Of a DNA stretch of 64,000 nt, positions 1,785 to 57,699 are shown in pieces. The notes under the pieces were generated by a model. The model made no database searches. It was not told where the DNA came from and saw only the letters and a list, made by a program, of their open reading frames with translations. Source of the stretch: Patescibacteria group bacterium (GTDB lineage: Bacteria > Patescibacteriota > Patescibacteriia > UBA10025 > JAHIVO01); contig JBMOKY010000001.1 of NCBI GenBank assembly GCA_049325535.1, positions 93,002 to 157,001 of the forward strand, in the 5' to 3' direction. A program made the position numbers and the translations under genes. The first letter of the stretch is position 1, and the number at the start of each line of letters is the position of its first letter.

Positions 1785-4700
1785 CTATTGGGTACACCAG
1801 GAATGTGCATTTTGGAACATCGTGAGCCACGGCGAGGCGTCCAGTCCCTGCAGTTTGGATGGCAGCCAGTGCCATTGCCAGAGTTTGAATGCCCGCTCCG
1901 GATGAGGCATCATGGCGAGGTGCCGACCATCCGGCGAGCAGAGTCCAGCAATGCCGCCCGGGGAGCCATTCGGATTGAATGGATACTGTTCAGTCGGTTG
2001 GCCGTCCCCGTCGACATAGAACAGGGGTGCCAGACCGTTTTCAATGACATGGCGCATCACTTCCGGATCAGGAAAGTAAGCACGACCTTCACCATGGGCT
2101 ACGGGGACGCCGAATGTCGAGCCTGCCATGCCCTGCAGCATGATGGCCGGACTCTCCGGAATGGTCACTGCCACCCAGCGAGAGTCGAACCGCCGTGAGT
2201 GGTTGCGGATGAACCGCGGCTGTTGCTCTGCCGGCAGGCCAGCCAGTGGCACGATTCCAGCTAACGTCATCCATTGGCATCCATTGCAGACGCCGAGGGA
2301 GAATGTGTCAGTCCGGGTGAAGAAGTCATCGAACATCTTGAGTAATGTTGGATTGCATCGGATGCTCATCGCCCAACCCTTACCAGCATCCAGGACATCG
2401 GCATAGGAGAATCCGCCGACAATGGCCATGCCGCGGAATCGACTGAAGTCAGTCAGGCGGCCATTGAGCAGGTCGGTCATGGTGACATCCCATGGCCTGA
2501 AACCTGCCAGGTGAAACGCCGACGTCATCTCACGATCACCGTTGCTTCCCTCTTCACGCAGGATGATTACCTCCGGTTTGTCATCCCGATCAAGGATTGT
2601 CGCCGGCGTTTTTTTCGGAGTGAATGTCAGCTGGTAGTCAGCAGGTAGTTTGCCGTGATTGGCAGTTTGCTGCTTGGCAACCCGGTGATCCATCTGTTCC
2701 AGCTCGAGCCGGTCGCTGGTCGCTTCCCACCATCGCAGAACGGTGTCGGTATCCACATCCAGGACGTTTTCCGTACCCTGGCGGCAGATGATCCGACGTT
2801 CGGTAGTAGTGTGGCCAAGTATAGTTACTGACAGACCGGTCAGTTCATGCAGCACATCTGCCTCGTTTTCCGGCAGGTATTCGATCACCGCGCCGGCCTC
2901 TTCAGCAAACAGCTGATCAAGAGCAGCGCGTTGGTCATCCAGTCCGATACGTAGCCCGCACCAGCCCGACAGAGCCATCTCTACCAGCGTCGTGATGAGA
3001 CCCCCGTCGCTGATGTCATGGCCGGCCAGGATGCGACCGTGACTGATGAGGCGCTGGATCGATTGAAACATGGCGACGAGCATTTCTGGATGTTCAATAT
3101 CCGGGCACTCATCACCAATCTGTCCCAGGCTCTGGGCAAAGGCACTGCCACCGAGACGACATGCGCCATCACCTAGATCAATATACAGAAGCTTTGATCT
3201 GCCTGGCATCTTGATGTCAGGCGTCACTTTCTTCGTAATATCGTCCATGGTGGCATAAGCGGAGACGACCATGGTGCCCGGTGACTTAACCAGTTCATCG
3301 CCGACCATGGAGGACATTGACAGACTGTCTTTGCCGCCATCGGCTGCGATGCCACAAGTGATCATGGTGTCGGCCATGGCTTGGGCCGCGTCGACCAGCC
3401 GGGCGCCTTCGCCAGGCAGCTTCGCTGCCCACATCCAATTGACCGATGACTTGATGTCCACCAATCCACTCAGTCGGGCGAATACGATGTTCGTCAAGGC
3501 TTCGGCCACGGACATACGGGCACCAGCTTCCGGATCCACCAGCATTTTGATCGGTTGTTCACCGATGCTGGTAGCTCCGCCAACCAGTTCAAAATGGCTC
3601 ATCGCCATGACACCGTAGTCAGCCACCGGCAATTGGAGCGGACCACAGCATTGCTGCTGGCCGACCAGACCGGTGACGCTGCGATCTACTTTGTTTGTCA
3701 GGTTTGTCTTCGATCCCACACTTGGCAAACGCAGTACATCGCACAGTGCCTCGGCAATACCCAGATTCGACGGGATAGCCAGCGGCTTGAGTTTCCGTGG
3801 TATACGTTCCAGCTGGAACGTTTTTTGCGGAATACCGCTGAGCGTTTTGGCCAGTTCCAGATCGACCGGTATCGAGCCGGTACGGTCATTCACGACCACC
3901 ACGCGCCCATCACCGGTGATCTCGCCGACCACGTCACATGGTACCTTTTCCCGTTTGCAGATTGCCCGGAAGTCGTCAATTCGGTTAGCCCGTATCAACA
4001 ATCCGTAGCTCTCCTGGAATTCAGCGCACCATATCTCCACATCGGCCAAGGTCTGATCGCCCAAAGTGATGCGATCCAGATGGATGCGGCCTCCTGCCGG
4101 GTCCACCAGTTCGCTCAGTACATTGGACGGGCCGCCGGCACCCTGGTCATGGATACTAGCAATCGGATTGTCAGCTTCCAGTTCTACACAGGCACGGATG
4201 ACGCGGAAAGTCTTCTGTCCCATTTCCGCATCACCACGCTGGACAGAGTCAAATTCCAGTTTGAGGTCCTGGTTTACACCAGAAGCCATACTGGACATGG
4301 CGCCGCCGCCGAACCCGATCCGGTAGGCCGGTCCGCCGATGCGGACGATGAGCATACCGGGTTCGGGCGCCTCCTTCTGCAGGTGCGTGTCGCTGATCAG
4401 GCCGATGCCGCCGGTGAACAGAATGGGTTTGATATACTCGCACCGTTCACCGCCGGGTAGACGTTGGCCGAAGCTACGGCAAAATCCCACAATCAGCGGC
4501 TCGCCGTACTTATTGCCGTAATCCTTGGCTCCGTAAGAGCCTTGAGTGATCACGCTGAGCGGCGTTTCATACTGTGGTGGGTAGTCAAACGTTCGGTCTT
4601 CGCCGGGGATATGGTAGTCAGATAGGTTGAGGCAACCGAAGGCATAGCCCACGGTAGCCGCCACCGTTAGTGACCCGCGTCCGGTCGCGTTATTATCCCG

Positions 4701-5591
4701 CTCCCGTCCGCCGGTACCCGTTTCTGCGCCTGCAAAACACGCCACCAGTGTCGGCCAGTTATGCGTTTCCGCCGTAAAGACCAGGTGGTAGGTACGTTGT
4801 TGTCGGGAAAACGGTGAGCAGGTGCCCGGATGCTCAGGAATGATCGTCCAGACCGTATACCCTTTGATGGCGCTAGAGTTGTCGCCAAAGGCGATGACAC
4901 TGTTGCCAGGATTCGCTTCCAGCGTTGACTTGATGATCTGCATCAGGGTACGAGGTACGGGCATCCCGTCAATCATCAAGCGACCCCTAAAAAACGGATG
5001 TCGAGAATGCTCGCTGTTTTTCTGAGCCAGGTCGAACAGTTCGACATTGGTCGGATTGCGCTGGTAGACACGGACAAACAGGTCGAAATAGAATTTCATA
5101 TCCTGCTCGTCGAATGATAGTCCCATTTCCCGGTTGACCCGGATCAGTTCCGCCATACCCTTTTCCATCAGCGGGATGGCATAGGTCTGGGCCGGTTTTG
5201 CGCCGCTGTCAAAGGTGGCGAGCGGGTTGGGATAGGCGCATTCCGTCATCCGGTCATGGCGCTGGGCAATGAAGTCCGCGTCCGTTATTCCGTCAGGGAC
5301 GACGTACCGCCGTGAGCGTTCCAGCCGAGTAATGGCGGTCAGACCGCAGGCGTGGCAGATGGCGACCGCATTGGTTGAGAAGGCTGTTTCAAAGTTGAGG
5401 CGCGGACCGACTTCAATGATGCGCCGGTTTGTGCCGTCCAGCAGGGAGCGTTCGCCGAATTGTTCCGGTTCAAACGTCTCCGCCAGGATCAACCTGAGGG
5501 TTGCCATCTCATCAGTCGTCAGGGGGCGACTTGTTTCAATATTGAAACAATACTCGAACCCTGGTTCAATGCGTCTGAACATTTTGTTCAC
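1785..5591 (-). CDS. purL: phosphoribosylformylglycinamidine (FGAM) synthase, large single-chain type
   Basis: The 1268-aa ORF is in the size range of single-chain FGAM synthase (about 1295 aa in E. coli) and has the C-terminal glutamine amidotransferase motif GVCNGCQ, an established PurL feature. A GTG start at 5591 is preceded by AAGGAGG 7 nt upstream. Confidence 0.9.
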   Translation of the reverse strand: MNKMFRRIEPGFEYCFNIETSRPLTTDEMATLRLILAETFEPEQFGERSLLDGTNRRIIEVGPRLNFETAFSTNAVAICHACGLTAITRLERSRRYVVPDGITDADFIAQRHDRMTECAYPNPLATFDSGAKPAQTYAIPLMEKGMAELIRVNREMGLSFDEQDMKFYFDLFVRVYQRNPTNVELFDLAQKNSEHSRHPFFRGRLMIDGMPVPRTLMQIIKSTLEANPGNSVIAFGDNSSAIKGYTVWTIIPEHPGTCSPFSRQQRTYHLVFTAETHNWPTLVACFAGAETGTGGRERDNNATGRGSLTVAATVGYAFGCLNLSDYHIPGEDRTFDYPPQYETPLSVITQGSYGAKDYGNKYGEPLIVGFCRSFGQRLPGGERCEYIKPILFTGGIGLISDTHLQKEAPEPGMLIVRIGGPAYRIGFGGGAMSSMASGVNQDLKLEFDSVQRGDAEMGQKTFRVIRACVELEADNPIASIHDQGAGGPSNVLSELVDPAGGRIHLDRITLGDQTLADVEIWCAEFQESYGLLIRANRIDDFRAICKREKVPCDVVGEITGDGRVVVVNDRTGSIPVDLELAKTLSGIPQKTFQLERIPRKLKPLAIPSNLGIAEALCDVLRLPSVGSKTNLTNKVDRSVTGLVGQQQCCGPLQLPVADYGVMAMSHFELVGGATSIGEQPIKMLVDPEAGARMSVAEALTNIVFARLSGLVDIKSSVNWMWAAKLPGEGARLVDAAQAMADTMITCGIAADGGKDSLSMSSMVGDELVKSPGTMVVSAYATMDDITKKVTPDIKMPGRSKLLYIDLGDGACRLGGSAFAQSLGQIGDECPDIEHPEMLVAMFQSIQRLISHGRILAGHDISDGGLITTLVEMALSGWCGLRIGLDDQRAALDQLFAEEAGAVIEYLPENEADVLHELTGLSVTILGHTTTERRIICRQGTENVLDVDTDTVLRWWEATSDRLELEQMDHRVAKQQTANHGKLPADYQLTFTPKKTPATILDRDDKPEVIILREEGSNGDREMTSAFHLAGFRPWDVTMTDLLNGRLTDFSRFRGMAIVGGFSYADVLDAGKGWAMSIRCNPTLLKMFDDFFTRTDTFSLGVCNGCQWMTLAGIVPLAGLPAEQQPRFIRNHSRRFDSRWVAVTIPESPAIMLQGMAGSTFGVPVAHGEGRAYFPDPEVMRHVIENGLAPLFYVDGDGQPTEQYPFNPNGSPGGIAGLCSPDGRHLAMMPHPERAFKLWQWHWLPSKLQGLDASPWLTMFQNAHSWCTQ

Positions 5592-5683: not shown

Positions 5684-5719
5684 AAAAAAAGCCGCCGTTC
5701 CTGTAAACCAGGAACGGCG
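5684..5719 (-). terminator. Rho-independent terminator downstream of pyrB-pyrI (family B hairpin)
   Basis: The minus strand reads CGCCGTTCCTGGTTTACAGGAACGGCGGC followed by TTTTTTT. The stem sequence is nearly the same as the purL terminator. Confidence 0.65.
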
Positions 5720-5745
5720 AAAGTACAGACAGAACTGGAGATGGC

Positions 5746-7233
5746 CTAGGCACAGAGCCGGGCCACTAACTGGTCGTGCGGGAAATCCCGTTCACAGTAG
5801 TGGCAGCGGCAGACTGAGCCGGGCGTACTCCGATCGAGCACCCGGAAGATGGTAGCCGCCTCGGGGTCGGCATTGGTGATACAGCTGCTATTCAGGCAGC
5901 GGAACACACCGAAGACGTGGGAGGGGATGTGGAAGCGTTTCTTCAGCTGGGTTTCATTGCCCGGGAATTCATTGATGGTGATTTCCGGGAAGATGAATTG
6001 GAGCGTGGCCGCCGCGACGTCGGGAAGCGTGATACCCGAGAGCAACATCACATCTTTCAGCCCCTCGTATTTGCGGGAGCGCACCAACTGCACCAGCTGC
6101 CGCGGATGGTTGTCGCCGATGGAGGTCAGCTGTTCCAACAGATGGAGGGCGGCAATCGCTCGATTCGGAGGAAGATGATCGATGACGGTTCCCGTCGTGA
6201 TCGGCTGGAAGTGCTTGACCGGTTTGCCCCGGTCTTCGATGCGGATGCTTTCGGCATTGATCAGCAGATCGGCATCATGCCGTGGGCGGCCGATACCTAC
6301 GAATGGATTGAGCAGCGCCCGGGCGATGAGCGCCATGCGAGTGGGGATGCCGTAGCGGGCCTGTTCAAAAGCCACCATGCGCGGATCGTTTTTGATGTCC
6401 GGATCGATCTCCTCGACTGAGGGAAGCGGGTGCATCACGATCACATCGGGTTTGCATATGTCAAGGAATTTCTTGTTGAACACGTACGTACCCTGTACCG
6501 CCAGACGCAGCGCCACATCAGCGATGCGTTCCAGCTGGAACCTGGTCACATAGATCACGTCGCATTCCTTGAGCGCCTCCATGGACTCACTCTCGCACAC
6601 GACATTGATACCTGCCTTGTACTGTGACAGCATTTCCGCGCCTTTTGGCGCCACCAGGGTAACCCTGATATTTTCGAAATGCCGCAGTGCCTGTATCAGC
6701 GAGACAGCGGTCCGGCCGTTTGCCAGATCGCCGACCAGGCCGATATGCAGATTATCGAGCCGTCCTTTTTTGATCAGGATGGTGAGCAAGTCGAGCATGG
6801 TCTGGGTCGGATGCTGGTTCCGGCCGTCACCGCCATTCAGGACGGTGACCTCCCGACCGTAATCCTCCAGCACTTCGGCCATCCACCGCGCTCCACCCTC
6901 CAGACCTGAGCGCAGCACCAGCACGTCCGCTCCCTGGTCAGCCAGCATCCGGGCCGTGTCGGCAAAACTCTCTTTCTTGACCAGCGAGGTGCCCTCGGCT
7001 CCCGAGATCTGGTGCGTCCGCATCATCAGATTCAGCATCGCTTGCATGAATGAGCCGAGAGTTCGCGTGCTCGGTTCCAGGAACAGCAGAGTTCCTTTTT
7101 TGGTAGGAAATCCGGTCGGGGCGGAGCGGGCAAGGGCATAGGGAACCATCTTTTGCCCGGCGACTACCATGTCATGAATGGATGCGCCGTCGGGGAAATC
7201 ATTGGTGCTCAAGATGTGTGAATAGGGATACAT
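5746..7233 (-). CDS. pyrB: aspartate carbamoyltransferase catalytic chain fused in-frame to regulatory chain (PyrB-PyrI single polypeptide)
   Basis: The N-terminal ~320 aa carry ATCase motifs EPSTRT, NGGDGRNQHPTQ and HPLP. After a ~40-aa linker the C-terminal ~160 aa align to PyrI: GTVIDHLPP matches E. coli GTVIDHIPA, and the Zn motif CLNSSCITNADPE...CRCHYCERDF matches CPNSNCISHAEP...CKYCEKEF. Confidence 0.85.
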   Translation of the reverse strand: MYPYSHILSTNDFPDGASIHDMVVAGQKMVPYALARSAPTGFPTKKGTLLFLEPSTRTLGSFMQAMLNLMMRTHQISGAEGTSLVKKESFADTARMLADQGADVLVLRSGLEGGARWMAEVLEDYGREVTVLNGGDGRNQHPTQTMLDLLTILIKKGRLDNLHIGLVGDLANGRTAVSLIQALRHFENIRVTLVAPKGAEMLSQYKAGINVVCESESMEALKECDVIYVTRFQLERIADVALRLAVQGTYVFNKKFLDICKPDVIVMHPLPSVEEIDPDIKNDPRMVAFEQARYGIPTRMALIARALLNPFVGIGRPRHDADLLINAESIRIEDRGKPVKHFQPITTGTVIDHLPPNRAIAALHLLEQLTSIGDNHPRQLVQLVRSRKYEGLKDVMLLSGITLPDVAAATLQFIFPEITINEFPGNETQLKKRFHIPSHVFGVFRCLNSSCITNADPEAATIFRVLDRSTPGSVCRCHYCERDFPHDQLVARLCA

Positions 7234-7435
7234 TAAAACCTCCTGCCCTCCATTGAGGGTGGCTAGATTGTTAATAAAACTGTAATTATTTGTGTTTTAA
7301 CTCAAATTATTGCAAGGGTAACATGCGTCCGGTATTACGTCAAATAGTGTCTCTCGGATAAAAAAATCGGGACTCTGAAATGGCCAGAGTCCCGGATGTG
7401 TAGTTGCGATGGTACGCGCTGGAAGCGCGCGATGG

Positions 7436-8182
7436 TTATGCTGCCGACCTGGTGCCGGTGAGCAATTCCCAGTTTGTGCGGGGCTTCTTCGGCGGGATAG
7501 CTTCAGAACCCTTCTGGCACAGGGGGCACTCGTCCAGCGTCCAGCGCGGCATGGGCTGGTCGACGACCGCGACATACTGCTGGCTGCCGAACGCCTTTTC
7601 ACCGGAGCGATTGAAGAAAATCCCGACGAACGGTATCAGTTTCGCGCCGCCGTCAGTGGCCTGTCGCAGGGCTTCATGCTGCGCCCGCAGGGTAGTCGCC
7701 TCGGTAATTAGTTCCTCCACCTGGAGAACAGTTTCGCCCGGTTTGATGCCGAAGCGCATGAGCTGTTTCATTTTGTCCTTCTCCTCCGTGAAGGCAAAAC
7801 GAGCTCCCAGATGGGCGGCGACTTTTGTTCCGAACGTGATGGCGGCCATCGGTGACGAGAGTACCCAGTCGACGCCGCCGAATGCGATGCCCGCGTCCAG
7901 CAGCTGTTTGGCCAGCTGGGCGGCCATCAGATCCTCCATGCGCGGGTACTCAAAGAACTCGCTGCAGTTGATATACCCGTCGGAGTGCTTGCCGCTGGTG
8001 AGCAGGGCATGCGGTCGTGTCGGGTCACCGGCGTAGTCGAAGTACCAATGGGCATTGGCGATGCCGAGCAGCCGGAGGATTTCCTCGGTGGGGATGAGAA
8101 ACCCTTTGTGGATGGCCTCGAGCTGCAGCCGATGATTGAACAGGCAGAGGTCACGTGGTGTGGCCAGTTGCTGTGTTTCCAT
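7436..8182 (-). CDS. pyrE: type I phosphoribosyltransferase, orotate PRTase-like, with non-canonical PRPP motif VLQVEELITEATT
   Basis: LTSGKHSDGYINC resembles the OPRTase LKSGRKSPYFFNA and the gene sits in the pyr operon. The PRPP loop has EE where the established VLLVDDVITTG motif has DD. The protein also has N- and C-terminal extensions. Confidence 0.55.
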   Translation of the reverse strand: METQQLATPRDLCLFNHRLQLEAIHKGFLIPTEEILRLLGIANAHWYFDYAGDPTRPHALLTSGKHSDGYINCSEFFEYPRMEDLMAAQLAKQLLDAGIAFGGVDWVLSSPMAAITFGTKVAAHLGARFAFTEEKDKMKQLMRFGIKPGETVLQVEELITEATTLRAQHEALRQATDGGAKLIPFVGIFFNRSGEKAFGSQQYVAVVDQPMPRWTLDECPLCQKGSEAIPPKKPRTNWELLTGTRSAA

Positions 8183-8203: not shown

Positions 8204-8593
8204 TTATATGCGCAGTTTGTGGTTTACGGTTTGCATGAGATCGTGGAGCGCTTCGGATTCTGTGGGCCGGAAATCAAAGACCATGTCGAGGTGAGCTGCG
8301 TGGATGACGGCCATGACCTGGTCAGATATACAGCAGAGCGTCAATGCTCCACCGACATTTTTGATGCGGATCATGACACTGAGCAGTAGTCCGAGTCCGA
8401 TACTGTCTATATGCTCGATTCCCTCGAGATTCAGGCAGAATCCTCTGATGTTTCGACCCAGGCATTCTGTGATATGGTCACTGAATGATGTTGCTGCTGC
8501 GCTTTTGTCGATGTGGCCAGCCAGCCGGGCGATCTCGATCTGATCATTCCGCGTCACATATGAGACGCGGAAACGTGGCTCAGGTGATGGCAC
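8204..8593 (-). CDS. STAS-domain protein (anti-sigma-factor antagonist, SpoIIAA/RsbV-like)
   Basis: The 129-aa protein has the conserved IDSIGLG phosphorylatable-serine motif typical of SpoIIAA-type STAS domains. Confidence 0.7.
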   Translation of the reverse strand: MPSPEPRFRVSYVTRNDQIEIARLAGHIDKSAAATSFSDHITECLGRNIRGFCLNLEGIEHIDSIGLGLLLSVMIRIKNVGGALTLCCISDQVMAVIHAAHLDMVFDFRPTESEALHDLMQTVNHKLRI

Positions 8594-8610: not shown

Positions 8611-9468
8611 CTAGGCTGTGGCGCGCAGCTCGTTCAATTCATCATTGGTTTTCTGCGCCTCGGCCTTGGCCGCCTGCGCCCAGTCGGCCTCCCGCGAGGC
8701 GTAAAGTACACTGCGGGAAACGTTGACCACGGCCAGCCCGCCATTATTGGCAGCGATGATTGCCGCGGCTTCGCCACCCTGGGTTTTCAGTCCCGGGATG
8801 AGCAGCGGGATGTCCGGTCCGACCGCCGCCCTGATTTCAGCCAGCTGAGCGGGCTTGGTCGCGCCGACCACCAGGCCATAGTTGCCACTGGCGCCGAAAG
8901 CACCGGTTGACTGGATGGCCACGTGCATATACACGGGCATAATCGGCTGATCAGCGCTCACTGCCGGCTGTACCGGGAGGGACTGGTAGTCGGCACTGCC
9001 CGGATTTGACGTGAGGCAGAGGCCGAAGACGCCCAGATGCAGGTCGAAAAACGGCTGAGCCGTTTCATTGCCCATGTAGGGGTTCCAGGTGACCGCGTCG
9101 CCACCGATTCCGTACAGGGCGGCTGCGTACTGCTCGGCGGTGTTGCCGATGTCGTTCCGTTTCCCGTCGAGGATGATGACGTGGTTTGGGCAGATCTGCC
9201 GGATGTACCGGACCGTCCGCTCCAGGGCTTTCCATCCTTTCCGGCCCTGGCTTTCGTAAAAAGCCAGGTTCGGTTTCCAGCCGCAGCAGCGCTCGGCAGT
9301 GACCTCGACGATGGTGCGGTTGAATTTTTCGATGGCGGCATCGGGGCTGATGTGGAAGAGCTCGGTGATTTCGCCGGGGACTTTCTTTTCGTCGAAATCC
9401 AGGCCGACGATCATCATGCTGCCCGAAATTTCCTGGGCATGCTTCAGTTTTTCCACAAAGGTTTGCAT
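8611..9468 (-). CDS. pyrF: orotidine 5'-phosphate decarboxylase (type 2, long form)
   Basis: The 285-aa protein has motifs VGLDF, KPNLAFYE and ILDGKRNDIGNT, characteristic of OMP decarboxylase. Confidence 0.85.
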   Translation of the reverse strand: MQTFVEKLKHAQEISGSMMIVGLDFDEKKVPGEITELFHISPDAAIEKFNRTIVEVTAERCCGWKPNLAFYESQGRKGWKALERTVRYIRQICPNHVIILDGKRNDIGNTAEQYAAALYGIGGDAVTWNPYMGNETAQPFFDLHLGVFGLCLTSNPGSADYQSLPVQPAVSADQPIMPVYMHVAIQSTGAFGASGNYGLVVGATKPAQLAEIRAAVGPDIPLLIPGLKTQGGEAAAIIAANNGGLAVVNVSRSVLYASREADWAQAAKAEAQKTNDELNELRATA

Positions 9469-23906: not shown

Positions 23907-23982
23907 GCTCGTATAGCTCAGCGGTTAGAGCACCACTCTTATAAAGTGGGGGTCGATGGTTCAAATCCATCTACGAGCACCA
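23907..23982 (+). tRNA. tRNA-Ile, anticodon UAU (reads AUA), CCA encoded
   Basis: The sequence folds as a canonical cloverleaf: GCTCGTA TA GCTC AGCGGTTA GAGC A CCACT CTTATAA AGTGG GGGTC GATGG TTCAAAT CCATC TACGAGC A CCA. U33 and A37 are present and the anticodon at positions 34-36 is TAT. Confidence 0.8.
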
Positions 23983-54216: not shown

Positions 54217-57200
54217 ATGGCTAGTCAGTATCATCATCAGGAAGTGGAGCGCCGGTGGCAGCAGGCCTGGGAAAGGGATGGCGTCTTTCGGGTGTCTGAC
54301 GATCAGCTGGTCAATCCGCAGTATGTCCTAGACATGTTTCCCTATCCGTCAGCCCAGGGGCTACATGTCGGGCACCCAGAAGGCTATACCGCGTCCGACA
54401 TTTACGCGCGTTTTTTGCGCGCCCGGGGCAAGTCCGTACTGCACCCGATGGGGTTTGATTCATTCGGTCTGCCCGCAGAGAATTATGCCATCAAAACCGG
54501 CACCCACCCGGCAAAAACCACCGCGGACAATATCGAAAACATGCGCCGGCAGATCAAAAGTCTGGGGTTTTCCTATGACTGGGAGCGAGAAGTCATCACC
54601 TCTGATCCGAAGTATTATCAATGGACGCAGTGGATTTTTATTCAATTATTTAAACACGGACTGGCCTACGAGGCTGACGCGCCGATCAACTGGTGCCCAA
54701 AGGATAAGACCGGCCTGGCCAATGAAGAAGTCGTTGACGGCAAATGCGAACGCTGCGGCGCTGCGGTGACCAAGAAGCAGATCAAACAGTGGCTGGTCAA
54801 GATCACTGATGAAAAATATATTGAGCGGCTATTGCACGGCCTCGACGATCTCGACTGGCCAGAGTCGATCAAGACGTTGCAGCGAAACTGGATTGGGCGG
54901 AGCGAAGGAGCGGAGATACAATTTCCAATTTCCAATTCTCAAATTCCAAAAAAATCTAAAGCATCAAATGTAAATTCTCAAAACAACAACCCGGTTATTA
55001 CCGTTTTTACCACCCGACCGGACACACTATTCGGCGCGACGTACATGGTGCTGTCACCGGAACATGAATTAGTTGACGCGATTACGACTGACAAGCAGCG
55101 GAAAGCAGTTGACCAGTATAAAAAAGAAGCGGCGGCAAAATCAGATCTGGAGCGGACCGATTTAGCGAAAGATAAGACGGGGGTATTTACCGGCGCGTAT
55201 GCTATCAATCCGGCTACTCATAAAAAAATTCCCATATGGATTGCTGACTATGTGTTGAGTAGTTATGGCACCGGCGCCATCATGGCCGTGCCGGCGCACG
55301 ATGAACGGGATCACGCCTTTGCGCAGAAATATACATTGCCGATCATCCAGGTCATCAAACCTCCGCGCGTCATGCCAAAGATGAGTCCGCCGCTCGGGAG
55401 CGCGGCCGCCTGGGGGATGCAGGACAGCGATGTGGAGTACACGTGCTGGACAGGTGATGGAGAGATGGTGAATTCAGGTGAATTTGATGGCATGGACTCA
55501 GTGGAATTCAAGAAAAAAATAGTTGCATGGCTGGCCCATAAAAGTGCTGGGAGAACTTGTCTGGTTATTCACGGGTTGAGCGGACATAAACGGGAGAATT
55601 GGTTCCCCTGGCTCAAGGATGAATTGAAAAAGCGCGGTTGGAATCCCATCGTACCGACCATGCCAGGCGCTGGGCATCCGACGCAGGATGGTTGGGAAAA
55701 GGAAATGGCCACGCATGATCAGGAAATCAATGAGCGTTCGTTTCTTGTAGGACATAGTCTGGGTTGTGCGGCTATTCTCTATCATTTACAGCAGAAAGGT
55801 CAGCAGGTGGATACCGTGATTTTGGTGGCGCCGACGAATCCTTTACAGAAATGGGAGCAGCTTAAAAAAAATCATCCGAGCGCCGATTGGGACGCGGTCA
55901 TGAGCATGAATCAGGAAGGTGCGTATGATTGGCAGAAAATAAAATCACTGGCTCGGCGCTTTGTCATAGTGTATTCAGATAATGATCCGTACGTTGATCA
56001 GGAGAGTATTGAATACTACAAGTTACATTTGCCAGAAGCTGAATATCACCTCTATCCAGGCAAGTCGCATTTCAGCGAAACGACCGGCGGTATCACCGCA
56101 TTGCCTGAGATACTGCAGTTTTTCCCACTGGAGCCTCTGGCCAAGGTGGCGATCAACTACAAACTCCGCGATTGGCTGTTTAGCCGCCAGCGGTATTGGG
56201 GCGAACCGATTCCGATTGTCCACTGTGAGCAGTGTAAAGAGAATGTGGAATCAACACCGTGGATTTTACATTTCTATGAAACGCCATTTCGTAAAATTCT
56301 CAGTGGTGAAAAAACAATTGAGACGCGCGCGCTCAATCCTGATGAACCAGACCGTTATTTCGCTGATATTCAAGCAGGCGATGTCATCAAGGGTGTGTTG
56401 AAAGGTACAAATGAATCATTGTATCTGCGAGTTACGAAACAATATCAGTTCAGAAATCTCGAAGAGTTTCACCAGCACAGAGATTTACTCGGGAAGCTGC
56501 GGGCACATTTTGATCCCACGCTCGAGGAGCTGAAGGAGTTTTATGCGCTCACACCCGACTATGTAGACCGAATCCAAAAAAACGGCTTAGTTGCCTGGGA
56601 GTTTATTCGTATACAGCCAGGGCAGGTGCCCGTTCCTGAGGATCAACTCCCGCTGGAATTACCCGACGTGGAGAAATACGAACCCACCGGTACCGGGCAG
56701 TCCCCGCTGGCCGCCATTACCGACTGGGTGAATACCACCTGCCCGGAGTGCGGCGGATCAGCCAAGCGCGAGACTAATACGATGCCCCAGTGGGCTGGAT
56801 CAAACTGGTATTTTCTCCGCTATTGCGATCCGCACAATGATACCCAACTGGCCGATCCTGAGAAATTAAAAAAATGGTTGCCGGTAAATATGTACATCGG
56901 TGGCGCAGAGCACGCGGTGCTTCATTTACTGTACGCACGGTTTATCTATATGTTCCTCTATGATATTGGTACAGTACCGCAGGAATGCGGTGAGGAGCCG
57001 TTTATCGTTCTCAAGAACCAAGGCCTAATCATGGGTGAAGACGGGCAGAAGATGTCGAAGTCGCGGGGGAATGTGATCAATCCCGATGACGTGGTGCGAG
57101 AGTATGGCGCGGACGTCCTGCGCATGTACGAGATGTTCATGGGGCCGTTTGAAGACGCCAAGCCATGGAGCACGCAGGGGATTGTCGGTGTACGGCGGTT

Positions 57201-57699
57201 TGTGGAGAAGGTATGGGAGTCACGGAAAAAAATTTCCACTGAGGATATTGAGGAACCGATGATCATGCATCAGACGATACGATCCGTCACTGAAAAAATT
57301 CCCGCATTCCGGTTTAATACGTGTATAAGTGATCTGATGAAATGGAGCAATGCGTGGGGCGAGCATATTGGTAAGAACGAATTTACTACATTCTTGAAAA
57401 TATTAGCCCCTTTCGCACCGCATTTGGCGCAGGAATTGTGGTATCAGCTTGGCCACGATGGGTATATTGAAAAAGAGCCGTGGCCGACGTTTGATAAATC
57501 AAAAATAGTGGAAACCGAAACAACCTATGCCGTACAAGTCAATGGCAAGCTGCGCGATATGATTACCGTAACCGCCGGAACCGAAGAAGCTGACGTGGTG
57601 TCTGCCGCTCGTGCCAGCGAGAAAGTCGACAAACATCTGACCGGCGAACCGAGGAAAACGATTTTTGTGAAAGACAAACTGGTGAATTTTGTCGGTTGA
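54217..57699 (+). CDS. leuS: leucine--tRNA ligase with two inserted accessory domains (alpha/beta serine hydrolase; ASCH)
   Basis: HVGH (HIGH), KMSKS, CP1 editing region and LRDWLFSRQRYWGEPIP are all present. The ORF is 1160 aa against about 805 aa for typical bacterial LeuRS, the excess coming from in-frame insertions at aa ~447-641 and ~677-803. Confidence 0.9.
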   Translation: MASQYHHQEVERRWQQAWERDGVFRVSDDQLVNPQYVLDMFPYPSAQGLHVGHPEGYTASDIYARFLRARGKSVLHPMGFDSFGLPAENYAIKTGTHPAKTTADNIENMRRQIKSLGFSYDWEREVITSDPKYYQWTQWIFIQLFKHGLAYEADAPINWCPKDKTGLANEEVVDGKCERCGAAVTKKQIKQWLVKITDEKYIERLLHGLDDLDWPESIKTLQRNWIGRSEGAEIQFPISNSQIPKKSKASNVNSQNNNPVITVFTTRPDTLFGATYMVLSPEHELVDAITTDKQRKAVDQYKKEAAAKSDLERTDLAKDKTGVFTGAYAINPATHKKIPIWIADYVLSSYGTGAIMAVPAHDERDHAFAQKYTLPIIQVIKPPRVMPKMSPPLGSAAAWGMQDSDVEYTCWTGDGEMVNSGEFDGMDSVEFKKKIVAWLAHKSAGRTCLVIHGLSGHKRENWFPWLKDELKKRGWNPIVPTMPGAGHPTQDGWEKEMATHDQEINERSFLVGHSLGCAAILYHLQQKGQQVDTVILVAPTNPLQKWEQLKKNHPSADWDAVMSMNQEGAYDWQKIKSLARRFVIVYSDNDPYVDQESIEYYKLHLPEAEYHLYPGKSHFSETTGGITALPEILQFFPLEPLAKVAINYKLRDWLFSRQRYWGEPIPIVHCEQCKENVESTPWILHFYETPFRKILSGEKTIETRALNPDEPDRYFADIQAGDVIKGVLKGTNESLYLRVTKQYQFRNLEEFHQHRDLLGKLRAHFDPTLEELKEFYALTPDYVDRIQKNGLVAWEFIRIQPGQVPVPEDQLPLELPDVEKYEPTGTGQSPLAAITDWVNTTCPECGGSAKRETNTMPQWAGSNWYFLRYCDPHNDTQLADPEKLKKWLPVNMYIGGAEHAVLHLLYARFIYMFLYDIGTVPQECGEEPFIVLKNQGLIMGEDGQKMSKSRGNVINPDDVVREYGADVLRMYEMFMGPFEDAKPWSTQGIVGVRRFVEKVWESRKKISTEDIEEPMIMHQTIRSVTEKIPAFRFNTCISDLMKWSNAWGEHIGKNEFTTFLKILAPFAPHLAQELWYQLGHDGYIEKEPWPTFDKSKIVETETTYAVQVNGKLRDMITVTAGTEEADVVSAARASEKVDKHLTGEPRKTIFVKDKLVNFVG

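Follow-up and report, generated by a model that had tools for sequence, protein, structure and literature searches.

Can one reading frame supply both the catalytic and the regulatory chain of aspartate transcarbamoylase (ATCase), and if so, would the product still assemble and be controlled like the textbook allosteric enzyme? The question is raised by a gene, here called pyrBI, in a 64,000-nucleotide stretch of contig JBMOKY010000001.1 from a Patescibacteria group bacterium (the whole of this stretch is the window, and positions are counted in it). The gene is at 5746..7233 on the minus strand, with its stop codon at 5746..5748, and its product of 495 aa (54.9 kDa) is 100% identical to a database protein entered as 'MAG: aspartate carbamoyltransferase [Patescibacteria group bacterium]'. 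A first-pass annotation, made from the letters of the DNA, had placed the open reading frame (ORF) at exactly these coordinates without stating the strand, and had read it as one chain that starts with PyrB and ends with a complete PyrI; matches to Pfam, to TIGR00670 and to Protein Data Bank (PDB) chains, together with an alignment to the Escherichia coli chains, bear this out. The reading favored here, at a probability of roughly 0.8, is of a genuine single-chain ATCase in which PyrB, a linker of ~23 residues and PyrI follow one another, and which would form a regulated (c-r)6, where c and r are the catalytic and regulatory moieties.

Two chains in one intact frame

The frame has an ATG start and zero internal stops across its 495 codons, as seen both in the ORF list and in the sequence, and a strong Shine-Dalgarno sequence, AGGAGG (7239..7244, minus strand), is present 5 nt before the ATG. 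Gene calls on contigs of four other assemblies, made from different sequencing runs, give the identical 495-aa product. One of these gene copies is identical to that of the window and three have two substitutions, at gene nucleotides 108 and 291, both third codon positions; the assemblies with this product are independent populations sharing one intact frame. With the same ORF recovered independently in those four assemblies, pyrBI can be excluded from concealing a stop or a frameshift. The junction, where the first-pass annotation had pointed to nt 6240-6300 as a place at which assembly might have concealed one, contains neither, and the linker at nt 6226..6294 is in frame and identical in the four other assemblies. 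The closest orthologues are also single ORFs, two from Kerfeldbacteria of 493 aa with 68% and 59% identity.

A complete catalytic chain makes up residues 1-313 and a complete PyrI regulatory chain residues 337-495, with all four Pfam domains, each encoded on the minus strand, scoring above their gathering cutoffs. The carbamoyl-phosphate-binding domain OTCace_N (PF02729; residues 6-152, 6778..7218) scores 85.9 bits against a cutoff of 29.9, and the aspartate-binding domain OTCace (PF00185; residues 161-304, 6322..6753) scores 89.1 bits against 29.4. The ATCase equivalog model TIGR00670 is passed at 252.5 bits (cutoff 236.95), and the protein is far below the cutoffs of the ornithine transcarbamoylase (OTCase) models. 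Catalytic chains in the PDB match residues 48-306, the best being those of Pyrococcus abyssi (1ml4) and Methanocaldococcus jannaschii (2rgw) at E ~1e-50, and the catalytic half of a predicted structure superposes on solved ATCase chains with Foldseek template-modelling (TM) scores of 0.85-0.91, target-normalised.

For the mapping of individual residues, E. coli PyrB and PyrI, whose sequences as used are exact matches to 1ekx_A and 1d09_B, were aligned with the window protein and 52 fused homologues (53 fused proteins). The ligands of OTCace_N are present as S55 T56 R57 T58 (E. coli S52 T53 R54 T55), R108 (R105) and H141/Q144 (H134/Q137), and those of OTCace as R174 (R167), R231 (R229) and Q233 (Q231), accompanied by the motif H268-P-L-P271. 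R167, R229 and Q231 are the aspartate-specific ligands that distinguish ATCase from OTCase and related enzymes. The 80s-loop residues S80/K84, which are donated to the active site of the neighbouring chain, have their counterparts in S83/K86, and since these serve the adjacent active site, a trimer is implied. In E. coli numbering R54, T55, K84, R105, H134, Q137, R167, R229 and Q231 do not vary among the 53 fused homologues, and S52, T53 and S80 vary hardly at all. The protein is almost certainly functional as an ATCase.

The motifs on which the first-pass annotation had relied, EPSTRTLGS, NQHPTQT, MHPLPS, GTVIDHLPP, RCLNSSC and CRCHYC, are all found. It had also drawn attention to the replacement of the last arginine of STRTR, giving STRTL. 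The replacement is present but is without the significance suggested, as the position (E. coli 56) varies across the 68-member clade of fused proteins to which the window protein belongs, being L in 21, R in 10, H in 7 and G in 6, with R in 73 of the ~100 unfused ATCases of the sample. The clade keeps the true ligands S52, T53, R54 and T55, and R269 of the HPLPR motif shows the same relaxed pattern as R56 (the window protein has R56L and R269S). Position 56 is a relaxed non-ligand site, and the replacement there is no sign of inactivation.

In the regulatory half, the allosteric (nucleotide-binding) domain of PyrI (PF01948; residues 343-433, 5935..6207, minus strand) scores 33.8 bits against a cutoff of 25, and the zinc domain PyrI_C (PF02748; residues 440-487, 5773..5916, minus strand) 42.2 bits against 23.4. 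Regulatory chains in the PDB match residues 343-493, that of Sulfolobus acidocaldarius (1pg5_B) at E 6e-16 and that of E. coli (1d09_B) at 4e-13, so alignment of the C-terminal half to PyrI, which the first-pass annotation had left to be checked, holds for Pfam domains and solved chains alike. C109, C114, C138 and C141, which bind zinc in the E. coli r-chain, have their equivalents in C446, C451, C477 and C480, all of them invariant in the 53 fused homologues, while the putative nucleotide-site residues D352, H353, K393, N421 and K431 correspond to r-chain D19, H20, K56, N84 and K94.

With the E. coli c6r6 enzyme (P0A786 plus P0A7F3; for example 1d09) the protein thus shares the catalytic ligands, the zinc cysteines and D19/H20/K56/N84/K94, and its model shows the secondary-structure elements of both chains in the same order; it differs in being one chain rather than two, in its 23-aa tether with an extra strand, and in the substitutions R56L, R269S, K164A, Y165N, E239L, Y240R and r-chain K60L. 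The best solved-structure sequence matches for both halves are archaeal ATCases (1ml4, 2rgw and 1pg5 A/B), in which, unlike here, the catalytic and regulatory chains are separate. No structure of a fused ATCase was found in the PDB by sequence or by Foldseek search, the latter matching catalytic chains only.

Assembly, nucleotide control and the tether

By analogy with better known ATCases, the protein would most likely serve de novo pyrimidine synthesis as a nucleotide-controlled (c-r)6 homohexamer. Three catalytic moieties would make up a trimer whose active sites are shared, S83 and K86 being donated to the neighbouring site, and the Zn(Cys)4 domain of each tethered PyrI moiety would dock onto the catalytic moiety of the same chain. 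The allosteric domains would pair up as dimers that bridge two trimers. The resulting (c-r)6 homohexamer, ~330 kDa in mass, would be the equivalent of the classical c6r6 dodecamer, and nucleotides bound at its PyrI moieties would modulate activity. For hexameric assembly, docking in cis and allosteric regulation the models are the E. coli and Thermotoga maritima ATCases, and we infer nucleotide control because of the residue conservation and the T. maritima precedent.

The fused PyrB-PyrI of T. maritima was reportedly described by Chen et al. in 1998 (J Bacteriol 180:6389). It has the same PyrB-then-PyrI order in one chain and belongs to class B (regulatory-subunit-containing, dodecamer-equivalent), with allostery reported. 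Two reviews list ATCase regulatory subunits as 'either separated or fused together', citing Chen et al. 1998, and recognise fused PyrB-PyrI as an allosteric class B ATCase variant (PMC4581275, PMC6022934). The window protein differs from that of T. maritima in coming from a mesophile-type genome of the candidate phyla radiation (CPR), of ~53% GC, and in being below the cutoff of the curated fused family considered further on.

Several observations weigh against a regulated enzyme on the E. coli plan. E. coli K164, Y165, E239 and Y240 form the inter-trimer and 240s-loop links of the T (tense) and R (relaxed) states, and all four are replaced in the window protein's 8-member subclade, by A, N, L and R in the window protein itself, with Y240 mostly Leu across the whole 68-member clade. 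E. coli-type homotropic switching is therefore not to be assumed, and cooperativity of the E. coli style may be absent or wired differently. Furthermore, r-chain K60 has given way to a hydrophobic residue, L397 (V/L/I across the family), and the PyrI half is divergent, with 72.6 bits on TIGR00240 against a cutoff of 148.55, keeping in mind that this model was built for free-standing PyrI chains. As regards the pathway, carAB, pyrC and pyrD are not in the window. Three other residues of the E. coli T/R switch, E50, R167 and R234, are kept (E53, R174 and R236 in the window protein).

These replacements, the hydrophobic K60 position, the low TIGR00240 score and the relaxation of R56 and R269 relative to unfused enzymes would all be accommodated if the PyrI moiety were mainly a structural clamp, holding two trimers together or stabilising the catalytic chain, with neither cooperativity of the E. 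coli kind nor control by nucleotides. That K164 and E239 matter for the T/R switch is indicated by PDB 4e2f, the E. coli K164E/E239K mutant, which is described there as 'in an intermediate state'. A clamp of this type is nonetheless distinctly unlikely. R-chain D19, K56 and K94 are invariant in the 53 fused homologues and H20 and N84 are kept in 52 of the 53, a degree of conservation not easily accounted for unless a ligand is bound. The allosteric domain has also been kept in full, although proteins consisting of PyrB and the zinc domain only exist elsewhere; their existence means that the allosteric domain can be lost when unneeded.

If the single chain is to be a regulated (c-r)6, its linker has to allow the assembly. 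The first-pass annotation had put the linker at ~40 aa, and ~38 aa do separate the Pfam borders, but only ~23 aa, residues 314-336 (6226..6294, minus strand), lie beyond the ends of E. coli PyrB and PyrI. An AlphaFold2 (AF2) model of a single monomer, built from a 52-sequence alignment, has a mean predicted local distance difference test (pLDDT) score of 94.3 and a predicted TM score (pTM) of 0.91, with no segment below 50, and shows the expected secondary-structure order of both chains. In the model the linker is predicted to be ordered, with pLDDT of 91-95 across residues 311-330 and an extra beta-strand at residues 324-331 (nt 6241..6264) assigned by DSSP. It is the least conserved segment of the protein, with 6 of 23 residues identical to the closest orthologue compared with 236 of 311 in PyrB, and yet its length is unchanged between the two; among 65 clade members the profile-to-profile gap is 27-38 aa and K/E-rich, and it is 36 in the more distant fused protein P0228. 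Conserved length with free sequence looks like the signature of a tether across a fixed distance. The fusion had been expected to constrain quaternary assembly, but need not obstruct it, given that the T. maritima precedent is allosteric and that linker length is held at 27-38. The 'fusion-inhibited carbamoyltransferase' of PROFICS was considered as a precedent for an assembly constraint and rejected, its tags being on a circularly permuted catalytic chain and not a matter of PyrB and PyrI.

Low conservation of the linker is also what might be seen if the chain were split into c and r, by internal initiation or by proteolysis of the linker. Codons 301-345 are without any ATG, GTG or TTG, and a separately initiated PyrI is therefore unavailable, while for proteolysis the linker is predicted to be ordered, its strand having pLDDT >90, and its length is conserved; in addition, one review describes T. 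maritima regulatory subunits as fused to catalytic ones (PMC4581275). Splitting is accordingly judged highly improbable.

Fused relatives and their history

The first-pass annotation regarded a covalent fusion as unusual. It is instead of a kind known since 1998, with an NCBIfam model of its own, and the database search proposed there for other PyrB-PyrI fusions yields many. An exhaustive profile search, which covered 1.84 billion representatives in clusters at 50% identity, gave ~76 full-length fused proteins of 479-580 aa among the best 150. Domain typing of 264 collected proteins found PyrB with both the allosteric and the zinc domain in 131, PyrB with the zinc domain only in 37, PyrB with the allosteric domain only in 2, and PyrB only in 94. 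Named fused members come from Patescibacteria (Kerfeldbacteria, Falkowbacteria), Woesearchaeota, Pacearchaeota and a few others. The fusion type occurs in thousands of genomes, and is widespread and abundant in Spirochaetota, CPR bacteria and DPANN archaea.

The PyrB plus zinc-domain-only class merits mention in its own right. Its members are ~350-375 aa long (for example P0094, P0082, P0056 and P0060), the named ones are from Ruminococcaceae and Oscillospiraceae, and 50-142 members are grouped in some of the clusters. No description of the class was found in the literature searched. Such proteins are presumably a natural analogue of the engineered complex of the zinc domain with the catalytic trimer.

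The curated family is NF009916 (PRK13376, 'bifunctional aspartate carbamoyltransferase catalytic subunit/regulatory subunit', ~525 aa), and proteins of its type are in more than 1,268 clusters, with the named members almost all from Spirochaetota and one annotated 'bifunctional'. The collinear four-domain architecture is common to this family and the window protein, which is 28% identical to an NF009916-type protein (P0267) and collinear with it over window protein residues 49-486; the NF009916 type also has Pro where the E. coli r-chain has A11, as in the window protein's clade. It differs by ~30 extra residues, present as insertions in the catalytic half. At 164.2 bits against a cutoff of 800 the window protein fails equivalog membership while sharing the architecture, and among the fused representatives scanned individually on NF009916 only P0228, at 641 bits, is near the cutoff. 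A 'KPV' at the end of the linker was considered as a trait shared with the NF009916 type and rejected, since it is at different positions and is no synapomorphy. As the CPR clade escapes NF009916, its annotation varies between 'aspartate carbamoyltransferase' and 'regulatory subunit'.

A different sampling, of GTDB species representatives with a search seeded by a 12-sequence alignment, gave a single fused ORF in 2 of the 80 best loci, both from Patescibacteria, and separate adjacent pyrB and pyrI in the remaining 78, often in the same frame with one stop between. In this search tblastn 'coverage 50-490' was rejected as a sign of fusion, the hits having merged neighbouring pyrB and pyrI, and an ORF-by-ORF check was used. 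An arrangement of pyrB and pyrI in the same frame and a single stop apart is present in many Bacteroidales, Neisseria and others (for instance ORFs 3698-4780 and 4784-5269 of locus L003), where one stop-loss mutation would create a fusion.

In neighbor-joining (NJ) trees, ~68 fused proteins form one clade with the window protein, with a bootstrap of 71 when the PyrB half is used and of 69 with the PyrI half. Both half-trees recover the same clade, and the halves have therefore evolved as one gene since a single fusion event. In the tree of the concatenated halves, this all-fused clade, of 68 cluster representatives and mostly CPR, has bootstrap 100. The NF009916-type P0228 is its sister at bootstrap 19, and the split of all fused from all unfused proteins has bootstrap 4. 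Another fused protein, P0167 (459 aa), nests among unfused proteobacterial pairs at bootstrap 67; in it a read-through of 10 residues leads to the PyrI initiator Met, which has been retained, and it may be a recent stop loss or a read-through artefact. Its placement indicates that fusions, or read-through artefacts, arise independently.

P0167 and the many genomes with same-frame genes one stop apart are what can be said for an assembly or sequencing artefact masking a stop or frameshift between pyrB and pyrI in the window, an idea with next to no probability in the face of the same ORF in four other assemblies from different runs, told apart by synonymous-position single-nucleotide polymorphisms, an architecture common to half the collected relatives, halves that co-evolve, and a 23-aa linker with no PyrI initiator Met.

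Genomic setting and what the fusion means

No second pyrB or pyrI gene, and no OTCase gene, was found within the window. The neighbours of pyrBI are all on the minus strand. Downstream is purL (1785..5591), for a single-chain phosphoribosylformylglycinamidine (FGAM) synthase of 1268 aa with the Pfam domains FGAR-AT_N, linker, AIRS_C and GATase_5. The upstream neighbour (7436..8182, 248 aa) is a pyrE-like gene whose product resembles orotate phosphoribosyltransferase, with 80.9 bits on TIGR01367 (pyrE_Therm) against a cutoff of 150 and no Pfam match; the product is probably a very divergent PyrE, extended by ~50 aa at the N-terminus, and at the pyrE-like position in two Kerfeldbacteria loci (L085 and L086) there is also a no-Pfam gene, of 277-285 aa. 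Further upstream is pyrF (8611..9468), for a type 2 orotidine 5′-monophosphate (OMP) decarboxylase, with 192.8 bits on TIGR02127 (cutoff 110.6) and a match to Pfam OMPdecase. The order pyrF, pyrE-like gene, pyrBI is kept in the genome of the 68%-identical Kerfeldbacteria orthologue. Between pyrF and the pyrE-like gene is a STAS-domain gene, anti-sigma-factor-antagonist-like (8204..8593), which is missing from the same position in Kerfeldbacteria locus L085.

A consensus scan found two terminator-like hairpins on the minus strand. That at 5692..5720 lies 26 nt past the pyrBI stop codon and has a 12-bp stem with 8 G-C pairs followed by a T-run; it would be expected to terminate pyrBI. The other, at 7368..7394 between the pyrE-like gene and pyrBI, is possibly the terminator of the upstream genes or an attenuator. 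Rfam gave no pyrimidine leader or attenuator family near pyrBI, nor at this second hairpin, and a sigma-70 consensus scan gave no promoter on the pyrBI strand.

The rest of the window is housekeeping in character and includes gyrA, ftsH, infB, clpP, the RNase III gene, nusB, leuS and rny. The leucyl-tRNA synthetase (LeuRS; 54217..57699, plus strand) is 1160 aa long compared with ~878 aa in solved bacterial LeuRS, and directly after its editing domain, at residues 448-633, has a complete YdeN-like alpha/beta serine hydrolase that matches PF06821 (E 2.4e-17) and residues 7-180 of PDB 1uxo_A (E 5e-13), with the nucleophile motif GHSLG intact at 512-516. Its HVGH and KMSKS motifs are intact and the synthetase core therefore appears functional. 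At 23907..23982 on the plus strand is a tRNA-Ile whose anticodon is TAT (UAU). Since AUA is read in most bacteria by a CAU tRNA modified with lysidine, this suggests TilS-independent decoding of AUA. The segment 36001..40000 has a GC content of 0.436, compared with 0.50-0.57 elsewhere, and contains tRNAs Arg-CCT, Ala-CGC and Ala-GGC and a mechanosensitive-channel-like ORF.

De novo nucleotide synthesis is said to be lacking in CPR and DPANN (PMC7567580). The purL/pyrBI/pyrE-like/pyrF cluster and the many CPR and DPANN genomes with fused pyrBI are mild, at least partial, exceptions to the generalisation.

The window protein adds one more member to a kind of fusion known since 1998 and belongs there to a distinct clade centred on CPR. 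The practical value of this is modest, and an impression of PyrB-PyrI fusion as exceptional is corrected. What remains of interest is that the T-state link residues are relaxed, that the linker has an ordered strand and that no structure of a fused ATCase has been solved; a small 55-kDa single-chain, confidently modelled version of the textbook allosteric enzyme could be a convenient structural target. A tentative suggestion, on balance doubtful, is that the CPR fused clade is a lineage apart from the characterised Thermotoga and Spirochaete type, and that in it the tether and its ordered strand took over part of what inter-subunit contacts do, after which residues near-universal in unfused ATCases drifted, namely R56, R269 and, in the window protein's subclade, the T-state links K164/Y165/E239/Y240. 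If so, the allosteric transition would be differently wired or lost, and the enzyme would be a compact model of the way in which fusing subunits reshapes allostery when genomes are streamlined.

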